Shown piece after piece: positions 33,003 to 57,456 of a DNA stretch of 64,000 bases; within the stretch, counting starts at the first letter, position 1, and each line of letters begins with the position of its first letter. The position numbers and the translations under genes are program-made. The notes under the pieces were generated by a model. The model did not search any database. It was given only the letters and a program-made list of their open reading frames with translations, and had not been told where the DNA came from. The stretch is from an uncultured virus (IMG/VR IMGVR_UViG_3300028586_000785) (lineage: Duplodnaviria > Heunggongvirae > Uroviricota > Caudoviricetes), in IMG/VR virus record IMGVR_UViG_3300028586_000785, one strand, 5' to 3'.

Positions 33003-33024
33003 AGGATAAACCGACCCTCTGACA
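33003..33024 (-). promoter_or_regulatory. RecA-NDp/PafBC-like promoter
   Basis: Minus strand TGTCAG-agggtcggtt-TATCCT (N10 spacing). Confidence 0.6.
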
Positions 33025-33035
33025 CTCTTATGTTA

Positions 33036-33803
33036 TCACGAACTCGCTTCTGGCGTTTTTGGGGGTTCTGGGGTCTTAGAGAACAGAATCTCCCAACTCT
33101 GAGTATCAGGGCTATCCGCACTGATGATGAATACGTAGCCTTTGTAGTTGCTAATCGAAGAATCTAGCGACTTGGCTTCATTACGCTCTACTGTCGAGTT
33201 CTTACCCCCGGAAAGCTTGATGGGGGAATCACCCTTCAGTGGCACCAAGGACACGTTAGTGGTGCCTATTCCGGTAGTGATGATGTCAGCGATGTCCGCA
33301 TCACCGTCAAACATGAATACGCGCGGACCTGTGCCAGTAAGTGACATGCTTGCGACCTTATCGATAGAACCAAGAGACTCCGCGCTGATCGCCCAAGACG
33401 TATCGTCTTCAGCTTCTACCAGGAAGTTTGTCGTTCGCGCAGGGCTGTCCTCTGTAGGGTACTTGATGAATACAGAAGTGCCACCTTCGCTTTCGTCAAC
33501 GCTTGCGACCTGTTCAACCTTTTCTCCGTCGTAATCTAGTTCAGCTAGCTTGACATCAGAGGTTGCGCTCATGGTCAGTACAGAAGGCTCATCGAATCCA
33601 GCCGGGAAGTCTATCTTGATCTCTTTTTGTCCAGATCCATTGATGGTGAAAGCTGGCTTTTCAGCCGCCTCTTGGTTGTAGGTCGGAGGAACGATCTTGG
33701 CTGGACCAGTAGAAGTGGGTACAGGCTCCGGTTCCCCTGAACATCCGGTGAGAACCATCGCGGACACAAATAGGACTGCTGCTAGCTTACTTAGATTCCT
33801 CAT
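33036..33803 (-). CDS. Lipoprotein (paralog of 33787..34587)
   Basis: Start re-called to MRNLSKL; lipobox VLTGC; two beta-rich repeats each ending W-S/A/E-I. Confidence 0.8.
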   Translation of the reverse strand: MRNLSKLAAVLFVSAMVLTGCSGEPEPVPTSTGPAKIVPPTYNQEAAEKPAFTINGSGQKEIKIDFPAGFDEPSVLTMSATSDVKLAELDYDGEKVEQVASVDESEGGTSVFIKYPTEDSPARTTNFLVEAEDDTSWAISAESLGSIDKVASMSLTGTGPRVFMFDGDADIADIITTGIGTTNVSLVPLKGDSPIKLSGGKNSTVERNEAKSLDSSISNYKGYVFIISADSPDTQSWEILFSKTPEPPKTPEASS

Positions 33804-34587
33804 CGACAGGAACCTCCTTTGCCTTATCGATAGACCATTCACCCGAGTACTGAACAGTAATGATGGAGCCGTTACCCGGTAGTGCTGTATCAGCAGTCTG
33901 ACTACCTCCACCTGTCGTTCTGTTCAGAATCACTCTGTTCTGATAGCCATAGGAACGGATAATGATGCCGGTTCCTTCACTCTTGACTGCTACGTTCTGT
34001 GTTTCTCCATTGACTACGAATGCTGTAGAGTCTGTACCCTCTTGCTTCTTGTCAAACGTGGTTAGCTGAGACAGGGCAATTACGTCCATGCTCCACTGCC
34101 CCTCACCAAAGGCTTTGACGGCAACCGTCTCAGACTTTCCTGAAGCACCCAAAACAGCAACTGAATCTTCTGGCTCATCAAAGTAGCCAATTGGCTCGGT
34201 GTAACTACCGTCAGCAGCAACACCAACGAAGTAACCTTCACGCTTACTCTTGAATGTCAGCTTGGTGACAAAAGGCTCTCCTGCCACCGGAGGCTTGATA
34301 TCAAAGACAACTGATTCAGCAAGACCGTCAGGAAGGTCATCAGGATTGACTAGGTTGTTATCCACATCATCACTAGGCTTGACGGTTTCGCTCGTATAGG
34401 TAACAGGCTTACTGTTTGACTCACTAGAAAGGTCATAGCGAGGACTACTCTGTGATTCCTGCTCGGGGTATGTAGGGTAGATAATCACTTCTGGTTCATC
34501 AGACGTTGGTGTACAGCCCGACAATACGACAGCCAGGGCGATAGCCATTGGCACTAGTGTGGCTCGACGTTTCATTGCTCTCCTCAT
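33787..34587 (-). CDS. Lipoprotein
   Basis: Signal peptide with lipobox VLSGC; GQWSMDV...GEWSID repeats similar to its neighbour. Confidence 0.8.
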   Translation of the reverse strand: MRRAMKRRATLVPMAIALAVVLSGCTPTSDEPEVIIYPTYPEQESQSSPRYDLSSESNSKPVTYTSETVKPSDDVDNNLVNPDDLPDGLAESVVFDIKPPVAGEPFVTKLTFKSKREGYFVGVAADGSYTEPIGYFDEPEDSVAVLGASGKSETVAVKAFGEGQWSMDVIALSQLTTFDKKQEGTDSTAFVVNGETQNVAVKSEGTGIIIRSYGYQNRVILNRTTGGGSQTADTALPGNGSIITVQYSGEWSIDKAKEVPVDEESK

Positions 34588-34712
34588 TGCTTACACATCT
34601 TATACAGAACCCGCGCAACCTCGCCGGATATCCACAAACTACTTGATAGGTGCTTCCTCTTGTTATCCAACGGTAGACATGGTAGATTATGGCGTAGAGG
34701 AAAGAAGACACA

Positions 34713-36686
34713 TTGACTAACAAAGAAGAACGAATCGCAGCGCTCACGGCTAAGCGTGATGAAGCTGCGCAGGCATATTTCTCGGGCGAATCAATCATCT
34801 CAGATGATGAGTTTGATTTGCTCGTCGCTGAGCTTGACTCCCTTGGTATCGAGGAAGAGTCTTCTGGTGTGGGTCATGGTTATGTCCCTAGTGGCAAGGT
34901 GTCTCACAAGCAGCGCATGCTTTCTCTGCGAAAGGTCTTCACTGAAGAAGACATCATCAAGTTCGTGGCGGACGTAGAAGCCCGTCAGTACACGGTTGAA
35001 CTAAAGTACGACGGTGGAGCGGCTTCCCTCATCTATGGGCTTGATGGCTATTTTGAACAGGCGATTACTCGCGGCAATGGCACTTATGGTGAAGACATTA
35101 CACCTGCTATGCGTGAACTCATTGCGGCGGGAAAAATCCCCGACTTCGTGGATACAGGTCGTGTCCGGACTGAGGTGCGCGGCGAGGTTATCGTTACACA
35201 TGAAGACTTCGAAAAGCTCAACGACTCTCCCTTGGGTGGAGACTACTCCAACCCCCGAAACACTGCGACAGGAATCATTCGGCGTAAGGATGTAACTGGA
35301 ATTGGCGAGTTCGTCAACTTCGTCGCTTATGGAGGAGACCTCCCGACTTGGCAACTAGAAGAAGAGGGCTTCCTTACCTCCATCGAGCACTACTTCGAAA
35401 CTGTCAAAGACAACCATGCTGAATCGATCATGGCTCTCATCAACAAACTCGAAGACGACCGTAAGACGTTTGGGTTCGACACGGATGGAGTGGTCATCAA
35501 GGTTGCTGACCAGCCGACCCGAGATTCTTTGGGCGAGTCCTCAACATCTCCCAACTGGGCTGTTGCTTTCAAGTTCAAGTCAGAAGTGAAGCAGACTGTG
35601 CTTCATGCTGTCGAGTGGAGAACCGGAAGAACAGGAAGAATTGTGCCTGTTGCTGTATTCGAGCCTATCAAGCTCGGTGTGAACGTAGCCCGAGCTACGC
35701 TTCACAATGCCACTTTCTTGGCAGAGAAGGACATCAAGATCAACGATACGATTGATGTCCAGCGAAGCAATGAGGTCATTCCTTACGTCATTGGTCGTAA
35801 TGGTGACCACTCTGATATTGCAGTAGACATTGTGATTCCCACTGCATGCCCTACCTGTGGCGCTCCCATCTTCCAGAAGAACAAGGACATCGTTTGCTCT
35901 GTTGGTAACTGCGACCCCAGGACAATCATTACCTACGGACTTGCTCAGCTAGGAGTTCTGGGTGTTTCGAGCAGCATCGTCGGAAAGCTTGTTGATGCCG
36001 GTGTCGTCAAAGACTTGGTAGATATGCTGGGTGTCAAGCCTGAACAGATCTCTGCTTTGGAAGGCGAGGGTCACGTTTCCGGACAGAAGGCAGTCAAGGC
36101 TATCAAGGACGCAATCAAGGGGGCTACCGTTGCTAAGTGGTTCACTGCTCTTGGTATTGCACAGGCATCTCTTTCCACTGGAACACAGCTTGCAGAGCGC
36201 TTCCACACCCTCGGGGGTATCGCCGCTGCCGAAGAGAAGGATTTGCTAGGTCTTCCCCGTTTCGGCGCTGCCAAGGCTAAGAGTGTCATTGCCGCTCAGG
36301 AGCGAATCGAGTACACCGAACGCGAGCTATTCTTGCGATACGGTTACAAGCCTGTCGAAGCAGAAAGGGTGGTTGTTCCTAGTGCAAGCCCATTCATCGG
36401 TCTCAATGTCGTAATGACTGGCAAGTTCCCCACCTTTGGTCGCACTCAGGCAGCAGATGAAGCAAAGCGCCTTGGTGCAAACGTCCAGAGCAGCGTTAGC
36501 AAGACGACCAACATCGTCGTTGCTGGTGAAGATGCGGGGTCGAAACTACAGAAAGCTACCTCTTTGGGTGTTACAGTGATGGACGCTGGCGAGTTCGAAA
36601 AGATCGCTTATGAGTTGACTGCAAAGCCCAAAACGGGTGGTAACGTTGACCCAGCAGACAACACGCTCAATGCGTTGTTTGATTGA
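34713..36686 (+). CDS. ligA: NAD-dependent DNA ligase LigA
   Basis: ISDDEFD, MLSL, ELKYDG, TRGNG, EVRGE, NPRN, DGVVIK, AFKF, ATLHN, zinc finger CPTC...C...C, HhH repeats, BRCT (SVSKTT..VAGEDAGSKLQKA). Confidence 0.97.
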   Translation: MTNKEERIAALTAKRDEAAQAYFSGESIISDDEFDLLVAELDSLGIEEESSGVGHGYVPSGKVSHKQRMLSLRKVFTEEDIIKFVADVEARQYTVELKYDGGAASLIYGLDGYFEQAITRGNGTYGEDITPAMRELIAAGKIPDFVDTGRVRTEVRGEVIVTHEDFEKLNDSPLGGDYSNPRNTATGIIRRKDVTGIGEFVNFVAYGGDLPTWQLEEEGFLTSIEHYFETVKDNHAESIMALINKLEDDRKTFGFDTDGVVIKVADQPTRDSLGESSTSPNWAVAFKFKSEVKQTVLHAVEWRTGRTGRIVPVAVFEPIKLGVNVARATLHNATFLAEKDIKINDTIDVQRSNEVIPYVIGRNGDHSDIAVDIVIPTACPTCGAPIFQKNKDIVCSVGNCDPRTIITYGLAQLGVLGVSSSIVGKLVDAGVVKDLVDMLGVKPEQISALEGEGHVSGQKAVKAIKDAIKGATVAKWFTALGIAQASLSTGTQLAERFHTLGGIAAAEEKDLLGLPRFGAAKAKSVIAAQERIEYTERELFLRYGYKPVEAERVVVPSASPFIGLNVVMTGKFPTFGRTQAADEAKRLGANVQSSVSKTTNIVVAGEDAGSKLQKATSLGVTVMDAGEFEKIAYELTAKPKTGGNVDPADNTLNALFD

Positions 36687-37372
36687 TAGAGGAAAAGACT
36701 TTGCCACTAAGCATTCCAGAGCTACAGCCGAACGATAAGGTCACTATTCGTGACTCTAACGGCAACGTCACCGATGTCTTCGTGTCATCTGTCGCCAAGG
36801 GAAAGCTGGACTACGAGAACCAGCCCTTTTTCATCGACACTAATGGGGAAATTCATTGGAGTGGTCGCTCTGTTATCTTGGACACAACCAGAACCGAACC
36901 AAAGGCGAAGCCTCAGAAGCCTACAGATGGTCGCAACTGGCGCGAGCAGATCACCCTCCATCCTGACGGTACACCAAAAACGATGAAGGAGATCCTGCTC
37001 AGCAGGGAGGACGGTAAGACCTTCGAAGATGAGGTTCGAGGTATCGTAGACGGCAGTAAGGAAAACGCGCTAGATGCGGTAAACCTTGCGCGCTCAACAG
37101 TGCTTTGGTTCCCTCGTCAGTTCCCTAAGATTGACACCTTTGATCTTCGTAATGACCCAAGATCAGATACCCTCATTGGGTACCGCGCCGAGGGTGTCAA
37201 CGAAGTAGAGAAGTTCCGACTGTTCCGTACTGGTTCCGTTGTGAAGCTGGTAGATAATGGCGAGGGCAAGCTTCCACGTCGATTTGGACGACGGTACGTA
37301 ACCTACTTTGGTGTGGGACTTATCATCTTGCCGGTATTGGCAGTCATCTCCGTCATCATCGGAGCTTTCTAA
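36683..37372 (+). CDS. Hypothetical protein with C-terminal TM anchor
   Basis: Overlaps ligA stop; hydrophobic C-terminus. Confidence 0.7.
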   Translation: MIEEKTLPLSIPELQPNDKVTIRDSNGNVTDVFVSSVAKGKLDYENQPFFIDTNGEIHWSGRSVILDTTRTEPKAKPQKPTDGRNWREQITLHPDGTPKTMKEILLSREDGKTFEDEVRGIVDGSKENALDAVNLARSTVLWFPRQFPKIDTFDLRNDPRSDTLIGYRAEGVNEVEKFRLFRTGSVVKLVDNGEGKLPRRFGRRYVTYFGVGLIILPVLAVISVIIGAF

Positions 37373-37782
37373 GCTGCTATAGCAGATTCCTTAGCGCGGA
37401 CATCAACGAACTCATCTGGCGAGAAGTAGATGGTGATTCCGTTTTTGGTGTTGAAAGCCAATAGACCCTCATTCGGCTTTCCCGCATCGGTAATGGAATC
37501 GATGTCTTCGAACTCTTCACCATAGCCATCAGTGATATCTAGTTCGTAGGTGGCACCGTTGTCGATATCTTCCTTGATGGAAGACGCAGGAAGGTAGAGA
37601 TCTAGGTTGTCACTACTGACCATTTTAGAATCAGTCTGGATCTTTGGAACAAGACCCTTTCCAAATGCCTTGGTACGTACAGCAGAGGCGTTGAGGTCTC
37701 TATGAAGGTGGCAGAGGCTGGAAGGATCGGTGGTTGTGTTGTTGCACACCTGGCATTTGACAGAGAACTGCATCTTAGTCAT
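37369..37782 (-). CDS. Hypothetical protein with N-terminal CxxC-x10-CxxH zinc-ribbon-like tag
   Basis: VKCQVCNNTTTDPSSLCHLH; strong AAGGAGGTG RBS. Confidence 0.8.
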   Translation of the reverse strand: MTKMQFSVKCQVCNNTTTDPSSLCHLHRDLNASAVRTKAFGKGLVPKIQTDSKMVSSDNLDLYLPASSIKEDIDNGATYELDITDGYGEEFEDIDSITDAGKPNEGLLAFNTKNGITIYFSPDEFVDVRAKESAIAA

Positions 37783-37828
37783 TTCAACACCTCCTTCGTA
37801 ACGAGGGTTGTTCTTCCCTCTGTGTTAC

Positions 37829-37850
37829 ATTGTACTACACTGCACTGACA
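37829..37850 (-). promoter_or_regulatory. RecA-NDp/PafBC-like promoter
   Basis: Minus strand TGTCAGTG-cagtgtag-TACAAT, full match to TGTCRgtg-N8-TAnnnT. Confidence 0.7.
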
Positions 37851-37876
37851 CTAATATTTGCCAAACCCTATCAGAG

Positions 37877-38440
37877 CTAAGCTAGAAGTCTCTCGTGAGC
37901 CATAGATGGAGGAAGGTCGATGTATCCATGACGACCAAGCCTAAACTTGACCGCCGCCCACGATGCTAGTCCGGTCGCAGCAGCTATCTCTTGATAGGTG
38001 GCACCATTCTGCTTCTCTGCATGCATGAGTGCAGCTAGCTGACCACTAGCTAGTCTTGAAGGTGCATCTGCCGGTGTGTTTCGACTGACTTGTGCGGCAA
38101 GTATTCTCAGTTCAGATAGCTTCTTTGCCGTCTGATCGGGAATGACATACCTTTTTGACTTCTCCTTCTCAACAACCGTCTTACGTGATAAGGGCTTATA
38201 CGTAGGGAAGGCAGGTGCATCGATTAAGGCAAATGACTCGTTTGCTTCTAGGTTCTTGATTCGATTCCTAATAGCCTCCGCCGAGAATCCGACCGCTCCG
38301 CCAATCTTCCTCAAAGACCATCCATGTTTGGCGGCAAGCTTGAAGTAGTAGTTGGCACAATTGACATCGCCATTGGTGTGAACGTCCATAAGAAAGGTGC
38401 ACACTTCATCGGGCAGCACATGCGCGGTATCGGTGGTCAT
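37877..38440 (-). CDS. Tandem helix-turn-helix DNA-binding protein
   Basis: GWSLRKIGGAVGFSAEAIRNRI and GATYQEIAAATGLASWAAVKFRL. Confidence 0.75.
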   Translation of the reverse strand: MTTDTAHVLPDEVCTFLMDVHTNGDVNCANYYFKLAAKHGWSLRKIGGAVGFSAEAIRNRIKNLEANESFALIDAPAFPTYKPLSRKTVVEKEKSKRYVIPDQTAKKLSELRILAAQVSRNTPADAPSRLASGQLAALMHAEKQNGATYQEIAAATGLASWAAVKFRLGRHGYIDLPPSMAHERLLA

Positions 38441-38550
38441 TCAAGTTCCTGTTCTTCAAGCATCCCTATTAAGCGGGTTCATGCTATCAGAGCTAGAGGC
38501 TTGCAATCTCGATTACGAGTAAGCCTCACAAGGGGTATTTCCAAGCTGTT

Positions 38551-39111
38551 CTAGAAGAAGGTAGCTGCGCTTCTTGGCTCATCGGAATTGGCAAACTCTT
38601 GGATGTAACCCTTTGTATCTAGAGGGTGGAATGACCCCTCATTTACCCTTGTCTCGACCTGGGACTGAATGATTGAAACGAACTCTGTACGTAGCTCAGG
38701 GCTGCCAAACTCCGACATAGCGCTGCTATCCATTCTTTCCCAGATGAGTGCCAACGAGGTGTCGTCGATACCAGATGCGTATGTATGAGCAGCTTCCGAG
38801 CCTTTCCTCTGGAAGGTTGACTCAATAGCTCTCACCGACACACGTGCCTTCATCCATTTGGAGAATTGTTCGTTTTCATCTAGGTCAAAGATTGACTCTT
38901 CGCTAGCGTAATCAGGTAGAGATATCCCGGTCTCATGTGACAGCCAACCGCTCGACCTATCATTAGCAATCTCGCTTGTGTGGATCTTAGGCATGGGTAT
39001 CCGGTTGGTAGCCGATACTGATGCGGATTGTGTTTGGTGCAGGTAGCAGAGACCATTGCTGTTCTTAGTGATGTTGTTGCACTTTCTGCATTTCACAGCT
39101 TGGTCGCTCAT
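38551..39111 (-). CDS. Hypothetical protein with N-terminal CxxC-x10-CxxH tag
   Basis: Start re-called to MSDQAVKCRKCNNITKNSNGLCYLH; same tag as 37369..37782. Confidence 0.8.
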   Translation of the reverse strand: MSDQAVKCRKCNNITKNSNGLCYLHQTQSASVSATNRIPMPKIHTSEIANDRSSGWLSHETGISLPDYASEESIFDLDENEQFSKWMKARVSVRAIESTFQRKGSEAAHTYASGIDDTSLALIWERMDSSAMSEFGSPELRTEFVSIIQSQVETRVNEGSFHPLDTKGYIQEFANSDEPRSAATFF

Positions 39112-39158
39112 GGTCGTTTCTTTCGGTATCCGAGCACACACTTTGTTGCGCTAAGTAG

Positions 39159-39180
39159 ATCATGCCACTAGCCACTGACA
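39159..39180 (-). promoter_or_regulatory. RecA-NDp/PafBC-like promoter
   Basis: Minus strand tTGTCAGTG-gctagtgg-CATGAT. Confidence 0.6.
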
Positions 39181-39188
39181 AGTTAGCC

Positions 39189-39995
39189 CTAAGCAGCAAG
39201 CGCTAGAGTACGGTTGCTGCTCAGACCAAGACCACCATATGATTTGAACAAAGACTGGTCGATATCGAACTTCGTAATCATTCCAAGATCTCTAATCGAG
39301 CCGCCCTGACGTACTACATTCATGAATCTATCAAACGAGACTCCGCTTTCAATGAGAGTGATGAGGAAGTCTACGTCCAGTTGAGTGCTGGCAAACATGA
39401 CCGATTCAATAGAGTTGGTAGCTCGTCTAATCGATAGGTACGCATCACGGTATTCCGAAGGGTTCAGGATGAGTAGCTCAGCGGTCTTGCATGCCGATAT
39501 CTCTTCTGGGCTGAGTCCTAAGACCTTTACAGCATTGATGTCACCAGCGGTCAAATCTGGTACGAAAGAGCCTAGGTAAGCCGCCTGTGCCACTGGAACA
39601 CCCATTGCGTCCACCATTGCTCCGACAACAAATGCATTGCTCTCGAAGGTTGCATAAGCGGTAGACAGGTAATCCGAAACGAATTGCGATGCCTTATCAA
39701 TAGTCTCTTGGAGAGGATAAAGAGTAAGCACCCGACCTGAGCCTGAATGCAGCGCCACAACGTAATCGAGGTAGTTAGGGTTTGACTGCCATATACGCAC
39801 AAGAAGGTTCAAATCCTCTTGTAGGGCGACTGAGCGACCCTGCAACCCCTTTAGAAGGTCACTCAACTTGCTCTTCCTAAACCGAATCTCAGCATCCAGA
39901 GGGCTAGAACCTTGGTTGAGGATACGAACGGTTTGGAGCATTAGTTCGTGGGAGGGGAGGTTGATGTGAATGTTACCATCGCGAACGAAGTACAA
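39189..39995 (-). CDS. Hypothetical protein
   Basis: 268-aa ORF; TTG start with AGGAG RBS. Confidence 0.7.
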   Translation of the reverse strand: MYFVRDGNIHINLPSHELMLQTVRILNQGSSPLDAEIRFRKSKLSDLLKGLQGRSVALQEDLNLLVRIWQSNPNYLDYVVALHSGSGRVLTLYPLQETIDKASQFVSDYLSTAYATFESNAFVVGAMVDAMGVPVAQAAYLGSFVPDLTAGDINAVKVLGLSPEEISACKTAELLILNPSEYRDAYLSIRRATNSIESVMFASTQLDVDFLITLIESGVSFDRFMNVVRQGGSIRDLGMITKFDIDQSLFKSYGGLGLSSNRTLALAA

Positions 39996-40017
39996 GGTTA
40001 TCTCCTGGATTAAATGG

Positions 40018-40137
40018 GACGGGACGCACTCTAACTATCCGAAAGTTAGTGAGTGCGTCCCGTCTTGGGGCGACCTAAGATGTCAGTCAGTGGTCGCCCA
40101 CTCTTCGGACCCTCTGGAAAGAGTTAGCGAGTCCGAA
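40018..40137. other. Three consecutive stem-loops (structured 3' UTR, terminator or sRNA)
   Basis: GACGGGACGCACTC/GAGTGCGTCCCGTC (14 bp plus inner stem), GGGCGACC/GGTCGCCC, TTCGGAC/GTCCGAA. Confidence 0.7.
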
Positions 40138-40151
40138 TTCTTTACTGGACC

Positions 40152-41453
40152 TTAGCGAGCGCCAGCAGCGGACTGCGTGCGCTTGTAGGACTTGCTGAGG
40201 AGACCAAGCTGGACGTAGACCGACTGGGGAAGCTCGTTCTCCTTCACACCGAACATCGGGATGATCTTGGAGGCGAGAACACCCGACATGACGAAGCCAG
40301 CAGCCTGGTGCTTGTCAGCGACCTTGACGAAGAAGTTCACGATGTCCTCGAAGTTCTTGACCGTCATGTAGTTCAGGACGTAGGCGAGCATGGCGTAAAC
40401 CTTGTCGGTACCGTACTGACCCCAGTCGTGCTTCTCGTCCTTAGCCATACGAAGAAGCTCGTCGGCGGACGGGAAGTTCAGGGCGCTGTCCCAGGTCTTG
40501 AAGGCGGCACCCTGGTCGAGACCGATGATGGAGGCGATGGTCATGTCGCGAACAACACGGTCCTCAGCGTCGGTGTAAGCCAGAGCCTGAGCGAGCTTGG
40601 TCCACGTACGACGCGAAGCCCAAGCCTTACCCGACTTCTCGGGGTTGCTGTCCACGACAGGCGAGATAGCAGTCATGTTCGTGAAGAGGTAACCGCTCAG
40701 ACGAGCAAGCTCAGCCTTGAAGTTGTTGTTGAGGGTAGCAACTTCCTCAGCCGGAAGACCCTTCGTGTTGGGAAGGGGCTTGCCGAAGTTGGTACGGAAG
40801 CCGTCAACCCAGTCAGCGTTCGGGAGGCTGAACTTGTGGTGAGCGAAGCGGTTGGCGAACGGCGGGGAGAGGTACTGACCGTTGGCAGCCTGGTCGATGT
40901 CGTTACCAGCGGCGACGAAGCGAACCTCGTCGGGCAGACGAACACCATCGATCTCGCGCTCCTCAACAACGGAGAGCATCGAAGCCTGAACGTCCTCACC
41001 GATGGAACCGATCTCATCCCAGAAGATGATGGTCTTGGGGTTAGCCATCGCGAACTCGAACCAGTCGGGCAGAGCGTTGACGGTACGGGCACGGAGGGCG
41101 GCGAGGCGCTGGTGCTCGGTGAGGTTCTCGTCCTCGGTGATCTCCTTGATCTTCTCGTCCGAGGGACGGACGACAATCGGGATACCTTCGAGGAAGGTAG
41201 GCTCCTTACGCGAACCGATGACCACCTGGACCTTGTACCCGAGCTTCTGGGCGATGGCGAACACGGTCTGGGTCTTACCGGAGCCGGGAGGACCCCACAG
41301 AATCGGGGGGATACCCGCACGGATCATGGTCTCGATGTAGACCTGCTGGGCGTGACCCTCATCGGAGGAAGCGAACCACGTCTCGGACGCGAAGGTGGGG
41401 GAGACGGTCTCGACGGTCTTGGTGGCAGTGGCGAGGTTGATGCTACCGGACAT
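40152..41453 (-). CDS. MoxR-like AAA+ ATPase (copy 2, canonical)
   Basis: LWGPPGSGKT, IFWDEI..DVQASML, FVAAGN, LSPPFANRFAH, SRRTW; strongly C/G-ending codons. Confidence 0.9.
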   Translation of the reverse strand: MSGSINLATATKTVETVSPTFASETWFASSDEGHAQQVYIETMIRAGIPPILWGPPGSGKTQTVFAIAQKLGYKVQVVIGSRKEPTFLEGIPIVVRPSDEKIKEITEDENLTEHQRLAALRARTVNALPDWFEFAMANPKTIIFWDEIGSIGEDVQASMLSVVEEREIDGVRLPDEVRFVAAGNDIDQAANGQYLSPPFANRFAHHKFSLPNADWVDGFRTNFGKPLPNTKGLPAEEVATLNNNFKAELARLSGYLFTNMTAISPVVDSNPEKSGKAWASRRTWTKLAQALAYTDAEDRVVRDMTIASIIGLDQGAAFKTWDSALNFPSADELLRMAKDEKHDWGQYGTDKVYAMLAYVLNYMTVKNFEDIVNFFVKVADKHQAAGFVMSGVLASKIIPMFGVKENELPQSVYVQLGLLSKSYKRTQSAAGAR

Positions 41454-41481
41454 TTTGTTACTCTCTTTCGTATGTTTAGTG

Positions 41482-41524
41482 TGACTGACATTTATAGACT
41501 AACCGCTATCAAACGGCTTGTCAA
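41482..41524 (-). promoter_or_regulatory. Sigma-A-type promoter with TGTCAGTCA box at the predicted start site
   Basis: TTGACA (41519-24)-N17-TAGTCT (41496-501), then ATGTCAGTCA. Confidence 0.7.
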
Positions 41525-41548
41525 GTCGATTCGGAAACTTTTTCTGAA

Positions 41549-43015: not shown

Positions 43016-43037
43016 GATTTCCTCTTTCTGGTGAGTA

Positions 43038-43084: not shown

Positions 43085-43089
43085 ACGGG

Positions 43090-44175: not shown

Positions 44176-44196
44176 ACTAGAACCTTTCTAGTACCT

Positions 44197-44218
44197 ACTA
44201 TCCCATGTAGGTACGACA
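44197..44218 (-). promoter_or_regulatory. Possible RecA-NDp/PafBC-like promoter
   Basis: Minus strand TGTCGT-acctacatgg-GATAGT (one -10 mismatch). Confidence 0.4.
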
Positions 44219-44295
44219 TCGACAGAAGGTTTCAAATACCTCTTGCGCGCTACGAGTGCCAGATGTAGACTTCAGCCCGATTTAGGAGATTTGTA

Positions 44296-45030
44296 ATGGC
44301 AGAAGTTCGTTCGGTATCATCGACAGGTGGAGAGAAGGGTGTCAAGGTTCAGGCTTACGACAAGATTCCCCCTAGTGCTCTCATTGAGCTAGCTAAGTTG
44401 TATGGCGTTGGTGCACTCAAGTATGCCGACCATAACTTCCGCAGAGGTTACGAGTGGAGGAAGTCATACGCAAGCTTGCAGCGTCACGCCAATCTATTCT
44501 GGTCTGGTGAAGACATTGATCTAGAAATGAACGTCAGCCACATGGCATCTGTCGCCTGGCATGGCTTTGCGCTTACTGAGTTCTTCTTCACCTTCCAGAA
44601 GTTTGATGATAGACCGGTTGCTCCTATTCATGTCGAACACGACTTCGAAGTTGGTGTCATCGAGTCCAAGGACTATCCCGCCAAACATCAGGATACCGTT
44701 GTGCGGGCAGTGGGCGAAGTAGAGCCACGATTTGATCTGCTGCCTCAGCGACCTTTGGCTGAACTTGCGCGCTTCTATGGCGAAGATGCTGCCGAGCCGG
44801 TGACGGACTATGGTAGAGCATGGAGTGATGAATACGCGAGACTACAGGAACATTCTGTAAGGTTCTGGGCTGGCGAAAACTACTTCCCCGCCACTGGTCA
44901 TCTCAATAGTGTGCACATTACGCACCACGCATTCAACCTAATCGAACTGTCGCAGCGTTTCGTTGATTACGATGACAGACTCATTGAAGGTGCCGCCCCT
45001 ATCGGCTTTACCTCACTACCCAACAAGTAA
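44296..45030 (+). CDS. dATP/dGTP diphosphohydrolase-domain (DUF5664-like) protein, internally duplicated
   Basis: GGEKG...YDKIP..AL.ELAKLYGVGALKYADHNFRRG..W...SLQRH..FWSGEDID...SHMASVAWH; second degenerate copy RFDLLP..LAELARFYG...FWAGE. Confidence 0.8.
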   Translation: MAEVRSVSSTGGEKGVKVQAYDKIPPSALIELAKLYGVGALKYADHNFRRGYEWRKSYASLQRHANLFWSGEDIDLEMNVSHMASVAWHGFALTEFFFTFQKFDDRPVAPIHVEHDFEVGVIESKDYPAKHQDTVVRAVGEVEPRFDLLPQRPLAELARFYGEDAAEPVTDYGRAWSDEYARLQEHSVRFWAGENYFPATGHLNSVHITHHAFNLIELSQRFVDYDDRLIEGAAPIGFTSLPNK

Positions 45031-45039
45031 AGCCTCAAG

Positions 45040-45077
45040 CTAAGAAAGCCCCCGATTGATTTCGGGGGCTTTCTTAG
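45040..45077. terminator. Bidirectional terminator between convergent genes
   Basis: CTAAGAAAGCCCCCGA / TCGGGGGCTTTCTTAG 16-bp inverted repeat. Confidence 0.85.
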
Positions 45078-45086
45078 TTGATGGGG

Positions 45087-46166
<1,080 letters not shown>

Positions 46167-46170
46167 CTAT

Positions 46171-48390
46171 TTACAGGGTGCAGGAAACGCAACCCTCAAC
46201 TTCGGTACCTTCAAGCGCAAGCTGACGAAGACGAATGTAGTAAAGGGTCTTGATGCCCTTTCTCCATGCGTAAATCTGAGCCTTGTTGATGTCACGAGTT
46301 GTAGCTGTATCCATGAAGAACAGCGTGAGAGAAAGACCCTGGTCTACGTGCTGTGTTGCAGCAGCGTAAGTGTCGATGATCTTTTCGTAACCAATCTCGT
46401 AAGCGTCCTGGTAGAACTCAACATTATCGTTCGTCATGTGAGGTGCGGGGAAGTAAACACGACCCAGCTTGCCTTCCTTGCGAATCTCAATGGGAGCAGC
46501 AATCGGGTGGATTGACGAGGTGGAGTTGTTGATGTACGAGATGGAACCGGTGGGCGGAACAGCCTGTAGGTTCTGGTTGTAGATACCGTACTTCTGGACA
46601 GACTTAGAGAGCTTCTTCCAGTCTTCCTGCGTAGGAATCTTGACACCAGACTTCTCGAATAGCTCAGCTACACGTGCAGTAGCTGGCTTCCACTCATTGT
46701 CGATGTACTTGTTGAAGTACTCTCCCGTTGCGTACTTGGAATCCTCAAATCCGCCAAACACTTCACCCGTCTCCTTGGAGATGAGGTTGGATGCACGAAT
46801 TGCGTGGTAAGCAACAGTGTAGAAGTAGATGTTGGTGAAATCAATACCCTCTTCAGAACCGTAGAAGATGCGCTCTCGGGCAAGGTAACCGTGAAGGTTC
46901 ATCTGACCAAGACCAATGGCGTGAGATGACTTGTTACCGAACTCAATGGACGGCACAGAGCTAATGTCACTCATGTCAGAAACAGCGCTCAATGCACGGA
47001 CTGAGGTCTCAATGGTCTTCGAGAAGTCAGGCGAGTCCATAGCCATTGCGATGTTGAGCGAACCAAGGTTGCAAGAGATGTCCTTACCGGTGATGTTGTA
47101 GCTACCATCGGCGTTGTACTCAGTAGGAGTATTGACCTGGAGAATCTCAGAGCAGAGGTTAGACATGTTGATGCGACCCTTAATCGGGTTTGCACGGTTT
47201 ACGGTGTCTTCGAACATGACGTAGGGGTAACCCGACTCGAACTGAAGCTCAGCAAGCGTCTGGAAGAAATCACGAGCCTTGATCTTCGTCTTGGTGATTC
47301 GAGCGTCATCAACCATCTCGTGATACTTCTCGCTGACGGAGATGTCACCGAAAGGTAAACCATAGACATTCTCAACATCGTAAGGGGAGAAGAGGTACAT
47401 GTCCTCATCCTTCTTAGCAAGCTCGAACGTAATGTCGGGAATGACAACACCAAGAGAAAGTGTCTTGATGCGGATCTTCTCGTCAGCGTTCTCACGCTTC
47501 GTGTCGAGGAACTTCATGATGTCGGGGTGGTGAGCGTTGAGGTACACGGCACCGGCACCCTGACGAGCACCAAGCTGGTTTGCGTAAGAGAATGCGTCTT
47601 CGAGCATCTTCATGACGGGGATAAGACCGCTGGACTGGTTTGCAATCTTCTTGATGGGCGCGCCAGTCTCTCGTAGGTTGGAGAGATTTAGTGCAACTCC
47701 ACCGCCGCGCTTAGAAAGCTGTAGCGAAGAGGTAATTGCGCGAGAGATGGACTCCATGTTGTCTTCGATGCGAAGAAGGAAGCAAGAAACAAGCTCGCCG
47801 CGCTGCTTCTTTCCGGCATTCAGGAAGGTGGGTGTAGCGGGCTGGAAACGACCGCTGATGATCTCAGTAACGAGTTCAGAAGCAAGCTTCTCATCACCAC
47901 GCGCGAGGTAAAGAGCAGTGATACACACTCTGTCCTCAAAACGCTCCAAGTAGTTCTCACCATCGAAGGACTTCAAGGTGTAAGAGGTGTAGTACTTCAA
48001 AGCACCCAAGAACGAGGGGAAACGGAACTTGTAGTCGTAAGCCTGCTTGAAGAGCTTCTTGACGAAGCTGAAGTCATACTGCTCGATAACCGCCGCCTCG
48101 TAATACTCTTCCTCGATCAGGTAACCAATCTTCTCTTCGAGGTCATGGAAGAAACGCATCTTGCTGTTTACGTGGTCAAGGAAGTAACGGCGAACCGCAA
48201 CCTTGTCCATATCAAACTGGATCTTCCCATCCTTATCGTAGAGATTGAGCATGGCGTTGATTGCGTGGTAATCCAGACCATCAGTGATCTTTGCAATCTC
48301 TTGTGCCCGGTCGTCAATCTCTGCTGCATCGATGGGAGCGATCTTTCTGAAAGACGCTCCCTCATTCTTACTGTCTACTGTTGTTGCCAA
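46171..48390 (-). CDS. nrdE: Class Ib ribonucleotide reductase alpha subunit
   Basis: [50 protein letters not shown]-terminal CVSC. Confidence 0.97.
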
Positions 48391-48830
48391 AATTCTTTCA
48401 ACCCTTCCTGGACTTGCTCTACGTCGTTGATCGTACCCATAAGTTCAAATCGATAAAGTACGGGTACGTTGCACTTATCGCTAATGACACTACCTGCTGC
48501 GCAGTAAGCCTCACCGAAGTTTCTATTGCCTGCGGGAATGACACCCCGTAAATGTTTTCTGTTGCCTTCCTCGTTGAGGAACTTGATTACCTGTTTGGGA
48601 ACAGCACTATCAACCTTTCCTGTTTCGGGGTTGATTTCTCCACCATAGGTAGGCACGACCAAAACAAAGGGCGAGTCGACAAATAGCGGTGATTCTGTGC
48701 GCTTCAAAGGGATTCGTACGGAATCCATTTCGAGCTTCTCCACAAACCTTTTCGTGTTCTCCGAAACAGAGGAAAAGTAAACGAGATTAGGTGTTGGTGA
48801 AGCATCTACTTCTGTAAGAGCAAGAGACAT
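48375..48830 (-). CDS. nrdI: Flavodoxin NrdI
   Basis: [44 protein letters not shown]. Confidence 0.95.
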
Positions 48831-48859
48831 TTCTACCTTTCATAACCTAGTGGTGGGGA

Positions 48860-48949
48860 CACAAAAGCCAAGCCTGAAATGATGCTTTGGCTTGGCTTAA
48901 ATCCCTACCGGAACCTCGTGTTCGTCAAGTGTACAACCCTTCCCGGACA
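48860..48949 (-). promoter_or_regulatory. nrdIEF leader: RecA-NDp-like promoter followed by a terminator-like hairpin
   Basis: tTGTCCG-ggaagggttg-TACACT (48928-48949); AAGCCAAGCC/GGCTTGGCTT stem (48865-48898) followed by TTGTGT. Confidence 0.45.
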
Positions 48950-49021
48950 ACGCAATAGGTTACCGACACATTGCTAAAAACAAGTTCTTCGGTACAGTGA
49001 AACTATGTCATCGGAGACCAG

Positions 49022-49050
49022 TTGACAACCTACTTGACTTGATGTATGGT
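49022..49050 (+). promoter_or_regulatory. Sigma-A-type promoter
   Basis: TTGACA-N17-TATGGT upstream of GAAAGGA RBS. Confidence 0.65.
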
Positions 49051-49077
49051 TGATTTAACTAGAAGAAAGGAACGATC

Positions 49078-49392
49078 ATGAAGCTCCGAAAGTACAGTAG
49101 CGACCCTAGCATTCGTCAAATGATGGGTGCCGCGTCTGACGTTCGCTTCACCGGTAGTGTTGTTCAGAAGATGAACGACGGAAAGACCGTTGTCATCAAC
49201 GTCTCTCTTCCTGACGTGGATGAGCCTGTGAAGACCACAGTCACAATGATTCCTCGACGGTTCAACAAGGTAAGCGTCTCTGATGTCATCGCCGGTACTG
49301 CTGACATCGTGCGTGATGGATCATCCGGTGAGTTCAGCGTAGCTCCGTCACTCTTCGTCGTGCGTGACCCTCGCGGAAGACAGATCGCCTAG
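49078..49392 (+). CDS. Hypothetical small beta-rich protein
   Basis: 104 aa with its own promoter and RBS. Confidence 0.75.
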   Translation: MKLRKYSSDPSIRQMMGAASDVRFTGSVVQKMNDGKTVVINVSLPDVDEPVKTTVTMIPRRFNKVSVSDVIAGTADIVRDGSSGEFSVAPSLFVVRDPRGRQIA

Positions 49393-50186
49393 ATAACAAC
49401 AAGGTCGTCTAAACCCAACTCCGAAGCACTCTCGGATACTTCTGTAAGAAGGCGGAGTTGAAGGTTAGACAAAGCCTCGTCGAGCGAAGAGAATTCCCTT
49501 TTGAAAACGGGGATCTCTTCGCTTTCGTCGTTAATCTTGTATACCTTGATTGCATCACCTTCGGCGGGGACATCGGCGCTAATCACCCAGTAACCACCTC
49601 TCGGCAGTTCAAGAGCGTTCAGGTCTTCTTCTGATGCATTTGGCGTACAAGCAATATAGGCAGTAAGGACATCATCTGTTGACGTGAAGTAGGAGATGTC
49701 AAAGAGATGAGTTCCGAATGAGTCGTGAATAACCTTGACTACCCCAGTGAAGAATTCAAGAAGCTCAGTATCCGCTCCCTTGATGATCGACACTTCGTAA
49801 CTAGAACCAGCCGCAAAATCGATTACGATTCGGTACTCACTACTAGTGTCCACAATCACTGACGTGAACTCCACATCGGGCGATACAGACTGGTAGGACA
49901 GAATAGACTCTGGTTGAGCAAAAGCAAGTCCAACAGCTTCGAGTGCGGGGTCAACTAGCGACTCACCGTCTTCAAATTTCATCAACCCTCGGTCGATAAG
50001 AGCTTGCGTCCCCCTCAACACTGTCTCTTCTGAGGGCGGATAGCTGTCTGAAATCTTCTCGTGGTCTTCTAGGTCGCTAAGTAGACCCATCACCCTGAGC
50101 GAAGACCAAAGAACCTTGTCAGGAACGGTGTTGACAAGTAATGCTACTAGCTCGTTACCGCTTAGTCGGAATGGTGTTACGCTCAA
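49389..50186 (-). CDS. EspG-like protein, paralog 3
   Basis: FRLSGNELVAL...QALIDRGLM..DGESLVDPALEAVGLAFAQP. Confidence 0.5.
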   Translation of the reverse strand: MSVTPFRLSGNELVALLVNTVPDKVLWSSLRVMGLLSDLEDHEKISDSYPPSEETVLRGTQALIDRGLMKFEDGESLVDPALEAVGLAFAQPESILSYQSVSPDVEFTSVIVDTSSEYRIVIDFAAGSSYEVSIIKGADTELLEFFTGVVKVIHDSFGTHLFDISYFTSTDDVLTAYIACTPNASEEDLNALELPRGGYWVISADVPAEGDAIKVYKINDESEEIPVFKREFSSLDEALSNLQLRLLTEVSESASELGLDDLVVI

Positions 50187-50188
50187 AA

Positions 50189-51181
50189 TCAGACCTCTGG
50201 ATCGTCTAGTGGTTGCTCGAACCCATCGCGCTTGGCAAGAGGAACATCAGAGAGTTTAGCGATGTATTTAGCTGCCTCGTCGATATTCGAGAAAGCAACC
50301 GATTCTTTGTTCGCTCGGGCATCAAGCAAGTCAACAGAGTTGACAGCAACAACGTAACCACCCTCTACCGGACTGTCATTTTCGTCAAGCAATGGAGTGT
50401 ACTCCACACCCTGAGTAGGCTCTTCAAATGCCGCTGTCCAGCGCCCGCTAGCATCAGCGAAAATTGCAGCATTGACTTCTATTCCTCCGGGGATCTTGAT
50501 GCCATACACGGCGGTCTTAGGTGCCTTAGGAGGGGTAACGTCATTGGCGACCTTGACTAGCTCAGACACAAAACCTGCTACAGACCCTGGAGCAACTAGC
50601 TGTAGGTCAAAAAGCATCGAGTTGAAATCATTGGGTGCGATGACAACACTGCCGTGCTCTGTGGCGATGATGGATGCGGTGTAAGCCGTGACGGGGTAGG
50701 AGAAACCATTCGGAGGTGTTTCGGGAACAGACTTCTCGGCAGCCTCAGCGCCCATGCGAACCGAAAGCTGCTTTACGAACTCTGCTCTCTGGTATTCAGC
50801 AAGCATCGTAAAGTTATGAATGACCCGATTGGGGTTGGTCAAAACCTGCAAGATGGGCTTGATGATGGGATTGGTGAACTCACCCTCATCGGAGATTAGA
50901 CCTCGTTCGCTCATAATCTGAACGCCCAGCCGCTTTGCCTTATCGGCAATCAGCTTGTTTCTCAGGATGGAGCCAGAATAGTTACGAGGAAGCTCATACT
51001 CGTCAGTTCTGTCCTCGAATGTCATGGCAGACTGAACTACCACGTTAGCAATGGGACCAAGAGCCGACAAAGACTCATCGATGATACTGACGATTGCATC
51101 TTCTCCAGGATTACCCTGAGTAAGAAGCAGTCCAGATAGCTCGTGAATATCGAGGTCGATAACGGATGTGTGCTTACTCAA
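50189..51181 (-). CDS. EspG-like protein, paralog 2
   Basis: IDLDIHELSGL...QIMSERGLISDEGEFTNPIIKPILQVLTNP. Confidence 0.5.
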   Translation of the reverse strand: MSKHTSVIDLDIHELSGLLLTQGNPGEDAIVSIIDESLSALGPIANVVVQSAMTFEDRTDEYELPRNYSGSILRNKLIADKAKRLGVQIMSERGLISDEGEFTNPIIKPILQVLTNPNRVIHNFTMLAEYQRAEFVKQLSVRMGAEAAEKSVPETPPNGFSYPVTAYTASIIATEHGSVVIAPNDFNSMLFDLQLVAPGSVAGFVSELVKVANDVTPPKAPKTAVYGIKIPGGIEVNAAIFADASGRWTAAFEEPTQGVEYTPLLDENDSPVEGGYVVAVNSVDLLDARANKESVAFSNIDEAAKYIAKLSDVPLAKRDGFEQPLDDPEV

Positions 51182-52222
51182 TCAATTTCCCTTTTCGTCG
51201 AAGAAGAAATCAGGAATGGTGTCTGGGAGGTGATCTGACTGTGAGTGGAGAGTTGCTTCCATGAACCGTTTGGTGTCTCGAATCAACTCGACGCTCGTGC
51301 CTATAGGAGACCAACCATCGTCACCATTTCTGATATCAACCTGAGTATAGGGCGCTGAGCCTAATTCAGCAACCTCAGGTGCCGAAGAGAATATGTTCCC
51401 GAACTTCTCTTCGTGGTTTCCTAGTAGCTTGAAGTCCTCGTTTGTCTCATATGGCACGTACCACCGAGCAATACCGTCATCATCAAGTTTCATTTGAGCG
51501 AGGGCTACTACATTGGAGCCGTGAGCATTGCTTCTCGTTAGAGATACAGAATATGGTCTAAACGACTCGCCGGATACCGAGGAAAGTAGTTTGTCGATAG
51601 AGCGGTTCACACCGTCTGCTACGACAGAGCCAACATTTGACGAAAGCTTGCCGCCACCCGGGATGCCGATGAACCTAATGTAGTCCTGCGCTTGAAAGTG
51701 CTCAGCCACCAACCAGTCTCCTGCGTAACTCTGAATGGCATAGAGAGAAGACCTCAATATTGGGGTGGCATTTGGGTTTCTGATCGAGACCTGAGACGTT
51801 CGATAAGCCATATGCTCGACAGGAGTCCTAAGAATCTTCAAGATGCTATCAAGCGAGCGATGTGTCTTGAAGCTACCCTCGGATGCCGGAATGAGGAACC
51901 CCTTGTCTACAAGCGAGGTAATGCCTACAGGAGCAACAGTGGTAACCCAGTCACCAAATACCTTGGTAGCTATCTCTAGGTCGTTAGCAGAAGGGATGTA
52001 TCCATACTCCATTGACTTCGTGATGAATCTCTGTTCGTCTTCGTTGCTTGTCACAATGGGCGGAGTAACCCCAGAAAAGTCAATCGACTTGATTAGCGAG
52101 AACAGAAGCTCGTGGTTAGGCACAAAAGAGGTAAAGGCTGCAACCTCAGCGAAATTCAGTTCCGCGATAGTCACAGCCTCACCCTCAATTTCGGCAATGC
52201 CAAAGGGTATTTCCGTCATCAT
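51182..52222 (-). CDS. EspG-like protein, paralog 1
   Basis: AELNFAEVAAF...TSLVDKGFL...HRSLDSILKILRTP. Confidence 0.5.
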   Translation of the reverse strand: MMTEIPFGIAEIEGEAVTIAELNFAEVAAFTSFVPNHELLFSLIKSIDFSGVTPPIVTSNEDEQRFITKSMEYGYIPSANDLEIATKVFGDWVTTVAPVGITSLVDKGFLIPASEGSFKTHRSLDSILKILRTPVEHMAYRTSQVSIRNPNATPILRSSLYAIQSYAGDWLVAEHFQAQDYIRFIGIPGGGKLSSNVGSVVADGVNRSIDKLLSSVSGESFRPYSVSLTRSNAHGSNVVALAQMKLDDDGIARWYVPYETNEDFKLLGNHEEKFGNIFSSAPEVAELGSAPYTQVDIRNGDDGWSPIGTSVELIRDTKRFMEATLHSQSDHLPDTIPDFFFDEKGN

Positions 52223-52286
52223 CTTTCACATCCTGCTTGATAGTCAGCTAACACTATCATCTATCATTTGGGCAGGATCTGATTAA

Positions 52287-52451
52287 TCAATCATTGGATG
52301 TGCGTGGTCTACTTTCAACCCATTCGATACCAGAGAAAGCAGCGATGTCGCCATCAGCTTCAATGAGAGCGGTGTTTAGATCATCTTCGTGCTGAAATGT
52401 GTAGACAAGGTTGTTTCCTTCATCGACAACTTCGATAACTGCTGTAGCCAT
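52287..52451 (-). CDS. Small acidic protein (54 aa), not in the ORF track
   Basis: MATAVIEVVDEGNNLVYTFQHEDDLNTALIEADGDIAAFSGIEWVESRPRTSND*; GGAGGA RBS; directly downstream of the ardC-like gene. Confidence 0.7.
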   Translation of the reverse strand: MATAVIEVVDEGNNLVYTFQHEDDLNTALIEADGDIAAFSGIEWVESRPRTSND

Positions 52452-52481
52452 TTTTCCTCCGGTGCGGGTTTTGACGACAGG

Positions 52482-53516
52482 CTACACTACGTCTGCGTTC
52501 CGCCATTCAAAATCGTCAAGAAGAGATTTAGTTGTCTTGGCAACACTTTCGGCAGCAGTTGCAACCATCTTTTCTCGGTCGTTGCCAGTTCTTACCCCAG
52601 CCCAGCCCGCAACATAGCTTGCTGATGATTCGGCGTGCTCATCCATGCCGTTAGCGCGAAGAAGGACATATGCGCCGGACTCTGCTTCCACTTCCATTGA
52701 GTTGCGCTGTCCGCCGTGACCAGTGTGGTATTCATCCGCTCTTTCGAGATGTCCGGAGGCAATATGGAACAGTTCGTGCGCGAGAGTTTTGGTCTTCTCT
52801 GCATCGCTCATAGAGTTGAGGATCTTGACTGTCTTATCGGTAGGGTCGGTGGAGGTCGCACCACGTACCGTACCGCCCAGAGAGTCCACGTACTCGACTG
52901 TGAAGCCCTTAGCCTTGATAGCAGACTCAATGTCATCACTAAGCCCTGCGGGAGGCGTAGAAGCCATTTCGCGGTGCGAGGTAGGCAGTTCCTCACCTTC
53001 TGTTTGGGCAATATCAAACACTCCAACACCAAAGAAGATGGATATTTCGGTCTTGACGGGCTTGCCATCTGGACCGATAACCTCATCACCATTCTTATCG
53101 GTCTTGGTAATCTTCTTCTTTCCGAAGGCATTGATGGCGATTGCCTTTTCACCCCTACGAGGGTGACGACCGAGAGATTCCCACGTCTTGTATCCTGCTA
53201 CCCGGGTTGCCTTACCTTGCGTCTGCATATCGATAAGGATCTGGTTGTTCCACGAGTAGTTTCGGAACTTGCTCATGGACTTGAGGTAGTGATTCCAGTT
53301 CTCATCCTCTGCCAAAGCTGAAACTCGCGCCTGTAGCTCATCCCTATAACCATCAAGACGCTCCTTAAGGGTTGGTCCCTTCTTCTCGGACTCCTTGGCT
53401 GCACTTTTTGGCTTCACACCTGCTACTCGACTTGTCGATGCCTTGGATACCCTTTTCTTGCGAGTGGTCTGAACACCGTTCTTATCAACGATAGGTGTGT
53501 CTACTAGCTCGTTCAT
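52482..53516 (-). CDS. ardC: ArdC-like ssDNA-binding/metallopeptidase antirestriction protein
   Basis: FRNYSWNNQILI..Q...ATRVAGYKTWESLGRHPRRGEKAI...VFDIAQTEG; KTLAHELFH; EVEAES. Confidence 0.85.
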   Translation of the reverse strand: MNELVDTPIVDKNGVQTTRKKRVSKASTSRVAGVKPKSAAKESEKKGPTLKERLDGYRDELQARVSALAEDENWNHYLKSMSKFRNYSWNNQILIDMQTQGKATRVAGYKTWESLGRHPRRGEKAIAINAFGKKKITKTDKNGDEVIGPDGKPVKTEISIFFGVGVFDIAQTEGEELPTSHREMASTPPAGLSDDIESAIKAKGFTVEYVDSLGGTVRGATSTDPTDKTVKILNSMSDAEKTKTLAHELFHIASGHLERADEYHTGHGGQRNSMEVEAESGAYVLLRANGMDEHAESSASYVAGWAGVRTGNDREKMVATAAESVAKTTKSLLDDFEWRNADVV

Positions 53517-53548
53517 GTGCGTCCCCTAGGTTGTCTGGCTACCTGCTA

Positions 53549-53570
53549 AGTTTAGCAAGACGCTACGACA
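53549..53570 (-). promoter_or_regulatory. RecA-NDp/PafBC-like promoter upstream of the ardC-like gene
   Basis: Minus strand TGTCGT-agcgtcttgc-TAAACT. Confidence 0.55.
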
Positions 53571-57449: not shown

Positions 57450-57456
57450 ATCAGCG

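Follow-up and report, generated by a model that had tools for sequence, protein, structure and literature searches.

Single-stranded DNA (ssDNA) hairpin promoters of the Frpo/ssi type, found in the leading regions of conjugative plasmids, are promoters folded from a single strand. The middle promoters of phage T4, with a MotA box at −30, a −10 element and MotA/AsiA as their factors, exchange the −35 for a box of their own and keep the −10 of the host. The closest described counterparts of the sites reported here are the already known PafBC-dependent promoters (recA P1/RecA-NDp) of Mycobacterium and other Actinobacteria, which stand before chromosomal repair genes. Excerpts of one account give their consensus as tGTCgg(N10)tA(N3)T, with the box at −28 to −23 (the “−26 element”) and no −35, state that the GTC of the box is strictly conserved across actinobacteria, and describe a mode of action termed sigma adaptation, in which PafBC inserts between the DNA and region 4 of sigma-A; a parallel with T4 sigma appropriation is drawn in the same excerpts (PMC8635444). 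PafBC is activated by ssDNA bound to its WYL domains, and ssDNA as short as 6 nt is sufficient, according to excerpts of a second account (PMC11804915). Here we describe promoter-like sites of this format on a giant plasmid-like element of probable actinobacterial origin, represented by a 64,000-nt stretch of DNA (hereafter the window) from the IMG/VR uncultured virus record IMGVR_UViG_3300028586_000785.

An earlier note on this DNA, made from the letters alone, had placed six copies of a spaced motif just upstream of co-oriented genes. All six 22-mers were verified at those positions, read on the minus strand, which holds nearly all genes of the window, and each lies 17–97 nt 5′ of the start of a minus-strand open reading frame (ORF). 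Site 1 (33003–33024, TGTCAGAGGGTCGGTTTATCCT) reads TGTCAGAG-N8-TATCCT and lies 29 nt 5′ of the GTG start of a gene for a 329-aa protein (31984–32973). Site 2 (37829–37850, TGTCAGTGCAGTGTAGTACAAT) reads TGTCAGTG-N8-TACAAT, 46 nt 5′ of a 137-aa gene (37369–37782), and site 3 (39159–39180, TGTCAGTGGCTAGTGGCATGAT) has the same box in front of CATGAT, with an extended −10 (TGG 5′ of the hexamer), upstream of a 196-aa gene (38551–39141). The fourth site (44197–44218, TGTCGTACCTACATGGGATAGT), TGTCGTAC-N8-GATAGT, again with TGG as extended −10, stands 21 nt 5′ of a DUF7007 gene (43090–44175). Site 5 (53549–53570, TGTCGTAGCGTCTTGCTAAACT) reads TGTCGTAG-N8-TAAACT, also carries the extended −10 TGCTAAACT and precedes an ArdC-like gene (52482–53516) by 32 nt, its TGTC falling within the final codons of the upstream ORF. 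Site 6 (48928–48949, TGTCCGGGAAGGGTTGTACACT), TGTCCGGG-N8-TACACT, lies 97 nt 5′ of nrdI and heads the nrdI-nrdE-nrdF operon (45087–48830). The genes presumed to be driven are thus nrdIEF, the ArdC-like gene, one gene with DUF7007 as its only match, and three genes without a family match, whose 329-, 196- and 137-aa products had no Pfam, PHROG, NCBIfam or PDB sequence match.

TGTC is present in all six sites, followed by G or A in five of them, and the distance from the box to the −10 is 10 bases (12 after TGTC) without exception. Four of the six have a TAnnnT −10; the other two hexamers, CATGAT and GATAGT, lack the first T and have an extended −10 TGn. The box, at about −28 to −23, is non-palindromic. 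No TTGnnn was found 16–18 nt from the −10 hexamer at any of the six sites, and a sigma-70 consensus scan of 32900–52800, which covers five of them, picked none. The earlier note had recognized here the layout of a PafBC promoter, and this reading stood: a TGTC box, 12 nt, a sigma-A-type −10 and no −35, as in the excerpted description (PMC8635444). Its reference to PafBC as an ssDNA-sensing regulator likewise agrees with the published activation by ssDNA (PMC11804915, excerpts). Judged by sequence, the window sites agree with the PafBC promoter class in every feature that defines it. The exact RecA-NDp string tTGTCRgtg-N8-TAnnnT given in the earlier note could not be confirmed. The sites differ from the described PafBC promoters in standing on a giant mobile element rather than before chromosomal repair genes, in that the first T is missing from some −10 hexamers, which have TGn instead, and in a 13-nt spacing in one pair of orthologs. 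As a class, they would combine a −10 of the housekeeping sigma factor, often with an extended TGn, and a TGTC(R) box 12 nt 5′ of it (13 nt for some orthologs), at about −28 to −25.

Conservation was examined in relatives of the element. The MoxR-like ATPase of the window (40152–41453) has five close relatives at 48–72% identity and five distant ones below 31%; an identical copy occurs on contigs as long as 805 kb, and contigs of 654 and 495 kb carry relatives. Three syntenic loci were compared, L001 and L002 from metagenomes and L003 from a 202,737-bp IMG/VR record (G001), the MoxR-like protein in the relatives used for site conservation being 57–72% identical to the window copy. The window is collinear with 112.7–176.9 kb of G001 at 66–79% nucleotide identity, and the orthologous intergenic regions of G001 keep all six sites. 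L001 keeps sites 2, 3, 4 and 6, and L002 sites 1, 3 and 4. With one to three relatives per site, TGTC and the −10 are invariant in the orthologs while spacers and flanks diverge. Site 1 corresponds to TGTCAGAGG...TATTCT in G001 and TGTCGGAGG...TAATAT in L002. At site 3, TGTCnGTG...GTGnCATCAT/GATGAT is kept in G001, L001 and L002, as are TGTC and TGrGATAGT/GATTAT at site 4, and the extended −10 TGn of these two sites is present in every ortholog. Site 6 is nearly identical across G001 and L001, and the G001 ortholog of site 5, TGTCGTAACCAGTTGCTAAGAT, also precedes an ArdC-like gene. A further match, TGTC-N13-TATGGT before dnaE (8205–8227), is not kept in G001 and was left uncounted. Beyond these loci, plasmid and phage collections searched for close relatives gave a match to nrdE only, and neither genome-contig searches with the DUF7007 protein and with the MoxR alignment nor a viral-contig search with the DUF7007 protein gave a match.

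Enrichment over shuffled sequence, on which the earlier note had staked its reading, holds for the sense strand of gene-upstream stretches at N12 and fails across the whole window on both strands. In whole-window counts against dinucleotide shuffles, TGTC-N12-TAnnnT was not enriched (6 vs. 6.91 ± 2.63), nor was TGTCAGTG (3 vs. 3.64), and the relaxed TGTCR-N12-ANNNT occurred 29 times where 20.5 were expected, a count reached by 6 of 100 shuffles. Upstream of genes the result is different. Genes were called crudely, by a greedy choice of the longest ORFs from 90 aa upwards with three more added manually, and this yielded 32 gene-upstream non-coding stretches of the window, 3884 nt in all. These contain four sense matches at N12, and every other spacing between N8 and N17 has none or one; not one of 2000 within-region shuffles reached four (mean 0.25), and the density is 64 times that found elsewhere in the window (Poisson P 6e-7). 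TGTC by itself was not enriched in these stretches (ratio 1.47), and the signal is therefore a composite at a fixed distance from the −10.

The same excess was found in the relative. In 130 upstream stretches of G001 (17.1 kb) there are 11 sense matches at N12 and 0–3 at other spacings, 0 of 2000 shuffles reached 11 (mean 0.94), and the density is 14 times background (P 1e-9). Matches counted as antisense numbered six, three of which are identical sites viewed from the divergent neighbour. In a hypothesis-free test of all 4-mer/gap pairs before TAnnnT in G001, TGTC at gap 12 was the commonest (11 of 226 anchors), followed by the canonical −35 TTGA at gap 19 (n = 9). A matrix of 13 G001 sites, which includes the ortholog of the DUF7007 site (located in coding sequence by the ORF calls), has G as the fifth base in 10 and A in two, and G two bases 5′ of the −10 in 11; most G001 boxes are TGTCG(C/T/G), and most G001 sites, like sites 1, 2 and 6 of the window, lack TGn. 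The members of the class are spread over 2–188 kb of G001. A match at 20928 (−10 AAGGGT, 113 nt from the gene) was considered doubtful and excluded from the matrix. As a control we used the cultured Microbacterium jumbo phage Cece, of which 150 of 186.5 kb were scanned with the last 36.5 kb left out; it showed no excess at N12 (12 vs. 4–17 at other spacings), and its matches are mostly intragenic. Comparison of sequences thus gives good support to the existence in this element family of a conserved promoter class that has the PafBC format and lacks a −35.

The element family has at least two predicted promoter classes, canonical TTGACA-N17-TAnnnT and TGTC-N12-TAnnnT, and extended −10 sites are also numerous in it. 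Two conserved canonical promoters lie among the sites on the minus strand of the window: TTGACA-N17-TAGTCT (41482–41524), serving the gene of the MoxR-like ATPase, and TTGACA-N18-TACCTT (43040–43084), serving a DUF2201 gene. Both are followed near +1 by TGTCAGTCA (41482–41490 and 43040–43048, minus strand), about 5–6 nt 3′ of the −10, and relatives keep TGTCAG(T/C)CA there. This sequence may be an operator or a conserved transcript start.

From the layout of the sites we infer that they are active promoters, that PafBC is their reader, and what their trigger would be. Because the layout matches that of PafBC-dependent (recA P1/RecA-NDp) promoters, sigma adaptation is the most likely mechanism, and we see an even chance that PafBC of the host reads the sites in this way. 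In such a mechanism, ssDNA-bound host PafBC would be placed between region 4 of sigma-A and the TGTC box, and the host RNA polymerase would then initiate at promoters that are silent without it. Roughly one in ten promoters of the element would fire once ssDNA appears in the cell, including those of nrdIEF, the ArdC-like gene, the DUF7007 gene and the three genes without family match. DNA damage, the element’s own transfer or replication, or another invader could each supply the ssDNA. The earlier note had also allowed for a WYL homolog on the element itself, and this found no support, as there was no WYL match among 49 window ORFs and no PF13280 match in six frames of G001 (266 kb in total with the window). 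The lack of a WYL gene on the parts of the element covered fits the use of a host factor, and PafBC, conserved in actinobacteria and with exactly this site format, would be the simplest reader, a proposal for which we hold the chances to be about balanced. Control of the element’s genes by LexA also found no support. The actinobacterial SOS (LexA) box has the consensus TCGAAC-N4-GTTCGA. CGAAC-N4-GTTCG had no match in the window or G001, and the looser GAAC-N4-GTTC none in the window and four in G001. Metatranscriptome contigs from four runs cover the MoxR, DUF2201, 137-aa, DUF7007, nrd and ArdC-like genes; the contigs are short, with a depth of 2–7 that is too sparse for transcription starts or induction, and DNA carry-over is possible.

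Several observations weigh against reading by the PafBC of the host. That the host carries pafBC is an assumption, and the assignment of the host is indirect. The conserved core has just 4–5 bases, and another DNA-binding adaptor could share it; the extended −10 of sites 3, 4 and 5 might need no activator. A WYL gene could be present in other parts of the element, of which the analysis covered 64 kb in addition to the 202,737-bp relative. In the G001 and L001 orthologs of site 2, TGTCAG and TACACT are kept with 13 nt between them, not 12. The TGTCAGTCA copies near +1 of two canonical promoters are not accounted for by the use of PafBC. The class is absent from phage Cece and so is not shared by actinobacterial mobile DNA in general.

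The alternative that survives best, although we consider it unlikely, is that the TGTC box is read by a non-WYL activator encoded on the element, which would make the class a timed set of genes independent of host PafBC. Such an activator would take over from the −35 contact in a manner resembling T4 MotA/AsiA or PafBC. Its candidates are a 187-aa protein with two helix-turn-helix (HTH) modules, encoded between sites 2 and 3 (37877–38440, minus strand), and a 227-aa protein with a C-terminal WhiB domain in the relative (G001 184259–184942, L013:4259–4942; 25.5 bits, cut-off 23.6). The tandem-HTH protein is the only element-borne candidate reader near the sites; its gene lies amid them, occurs in conserved form in each of the four elements and is preceded by a conserved extended −10 promoter of its own, TGATAGCAT (38441–38550), and nine database proteins match it at 50–100% identity. 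Weak HTH matches at residues ~36–67 and ~136–180 were found in three of the four orthologs, and only near 39–71 in that of L002; the two modules resemble an internal duplication, and the protein matched no family. An AlphaFold2 model of the protein had a mean predicted local distance difference test (pLDDT) score of 84.9, and a Foldseek search of the PDB with this model, which gave nothing with E ≤ 0.001, speaks against the candidate. As for the WhiB-domain protein, it has an N-terminal extension of ~130 aa, and Wbl proteins bind region 4 of sigma-A.

An activator of the element’s own would gain from the copies of TGTCAGTCA near the +1 positions of two canonical promoters close by, which would suit one element-borne DNA-binding protein at both kinds of site, and from phage Cece, whose lack of the class makes it lineage-specific. 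Against it, the match to the PafBC format in core, spacing and −35 absence would have to be a coincidence, and most G001 boxes are TGTCG(C/T/G), unlike the +1 boxes TGTCAG(T/C)CA. Moreover, the scanned ORFs matched no MotA, AsiA or sigma family (for the MotA and AsiA Pfam families, 49 in the window and 126 + 26 in G001). The sites share with T4 middle promoters the exchange of the −35 for a box of their own and the retained host −10, but the sequence and position of the box differ and the scanned ORFs hold no MotA/AsiA match. The further proposal that the element family has a private non-WYL “sigma adaptor”, the tandem-HTH protein or the WhiB fusion, for a PafBC-like −26 box is more doubtful still; if true, giant actinobacterial plasmids would have evolved a form of sigma adaptation or appropriation that mimics host DNA-damage promoters.

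Returning to PafBC as the reader, the earlier note had further proposed a conjugative establishment regulon, in which the entry of ssDNA by conjugation switches the class on in a new recipient, as an actinobacterial counterpart of leading-region ssDNA hairpin promoters. The proposed outcome would be the same in both, early anti-restriction-type genes tied to ssDNA entry, but the sites described here have ordinary duplex promoter layouts. This reading is weak and speculative, and we regard it as improbable. It can appeal to a VirB4-like ATPase and a Replic_Relax protein encoded on the element, to the ArdC-like gene within the class, and to the 6-nt ssDNA that activates PafBC (PMC11804915, excerpts). 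Disruption of pafB or pafC also impairs Mycobacterium smegmatis recipients in conjugation, an effect that the authors credit to RecA in the excerpts available (PMC5656591). However, the scatter of the G001 sites over the 2–188 kb given above, without clustering by a transfer origin or leading region, and the distance of about 20 kb between the relaxase-like gene and the window site closest to it both weaken it. No origin of transfer (oriT) was identified, the transfer of the element as ssDNA is hypothetical, and DNA damage or the element’s own replication would yield the same signal. The gene content claimed for such a regulon, anti-defence and deoxynucleotide (dNTP) genes, was found at two of the six sites (the ArdC-like gene and nrdIEF) and not at the remaining four, which serve the DUF7007-only gene and the three genes without family match; the ArdC-like gene is the one recognizable anti-defence gene among the six.

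The least probable alternative is that ordinary housekeeping promoters work here from their −10 or extended −10, with the box conserved as a repressor’s operator or through an unrelated constraint. It has on its side the extended −10 of sites 3, 4 and 5, the frequent lack of a −35 in actinobacterial promoters and the operator-like +1 position of TGTCAGTCA, and against it the fixed 12-nt phasing to the −10 that tops the unbiased test, the lack of upstream enrichment of TGTC on its own, and the absence of TGn from sites 1, 2 and 6 and most G001 sites.

Overall, the interpretation given in the earlier note is partly supported, and the reading of the sites as promoters of PafBC format is plausible. 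A literature search for PafBC or RecA-NDp, alone or with mobile-element terms, gave titles and opening lines of abstracts in which no mobile-element promoters of this kind were described. If PafBC reads the sites, a mobile element has coupled some of its genes, for dNTP supply, an anti-restriction-type function and several products of no known family, to the ssDNA alarm of its host. Sigma adaptation would then extend from chromosomal repair genes to mobile DNA and would offer a simple, testable explanation for the way in which large actinobacterial elements coordinate genes with entry, replication or host damage.

The replication genes of the window include DnaE, DnaB, a DnaC-like loader, tau/gamma and an NAD-dependent ligase. 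It also encodes NrdIEF, the MoxR ATPase, a DUF2201 protein with a VWA domain, the DUF7007 protein, an SNF2 helicase and the ArdC-like protein, in addition to the transfer-related VirB4-like ATPase and Replic_Relax protein. Further genes in G001 encode two T2SSE ATPases (Tad-like secretion ATPases) and a T2SSF protein, as well as a CCA-adding enzyme, NAPRTase, ThyX, dUTPase, RtcB, SbcCD, SSB and a sliding clamp. A single array in G001 holds 65 tRNA genes and a tmRNA (tag ANASRNDFALAA). We refer to a giant plasmid-like element because no capsid, portal or terminase family was found in the G001 proteins scanned (126 + 26 with Pfam, 66 with PHROGs; nine ORFs spanning locus joins and seven more called ORFs lay outside both scans). 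IMG/VR lists this relative as a provirus.

An actinobacterium living in plant litter and on leaf surfaces is the probable host. The actinobacterial setting assumed in the earlier note is borne out as probable because of the WhiB-domain gene on G001 and the actinobacterial best plasmid matches of DnaE and Cas7e (35–41% identity); among 14 control genomes, the WhiB family matched only Corynebacterium glutamicum. NrdE was dropped as evidence for the host, being equally close (76–78% aa identity) to Rhizobiales and Actinobacteria. Metagenomes with DNA of the element are from leaf litter, phyllosphere, plants and straw; at least half of the sampled words were present in 14 runs, and the 20 entries that contain it come from 17 studies.

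The leader between site 6 and the start codon of nrdI (48831–48927, minus strand) contains two conserved hairpins, the second of which (about 48866–48897) is followed by TTTTGTGT. The hairpins have 22 predicted pairs; the stems are invariant in three elements and the loops vary, with no compensatory changes. Since the second hairpin and TTTTGTGT resemble an intrinsic terminator, the leader may act as an attenuator or small RNA. A search of the whole window against Rfam at the gathering threshold gave no match.

A type I-E operon (54971–62431, minus strand) contains cas3, cse1, cas7, cas5 and cas6e, with no cas1 or cas2 match in the scanned ORFs and no separate cse2. Its Cse1 is long (676 aa), and the Pfam match spans residues 5–466 only. 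A tandem-repeat search found no clustered regularly interspaced short palindromic repeat (CRISPR) array in the window, and G001 has the same type I-E gene set. Facing the DUF7007 gene across the intergenic region that contains site 4 is a plus-strand gene (44296–45030) with the N-terminal domain of a dATP/dGTP diphosphohydrolase (PF18909, in two stretches). A 432-aa ORF on the plus strand (40308–41606), antisense to the MoxR gene and without a family match, is most likely a shadow ORF. The stretch from 40 to 44 kb is richer in GC (57%) than the rest of the window (about 50%).

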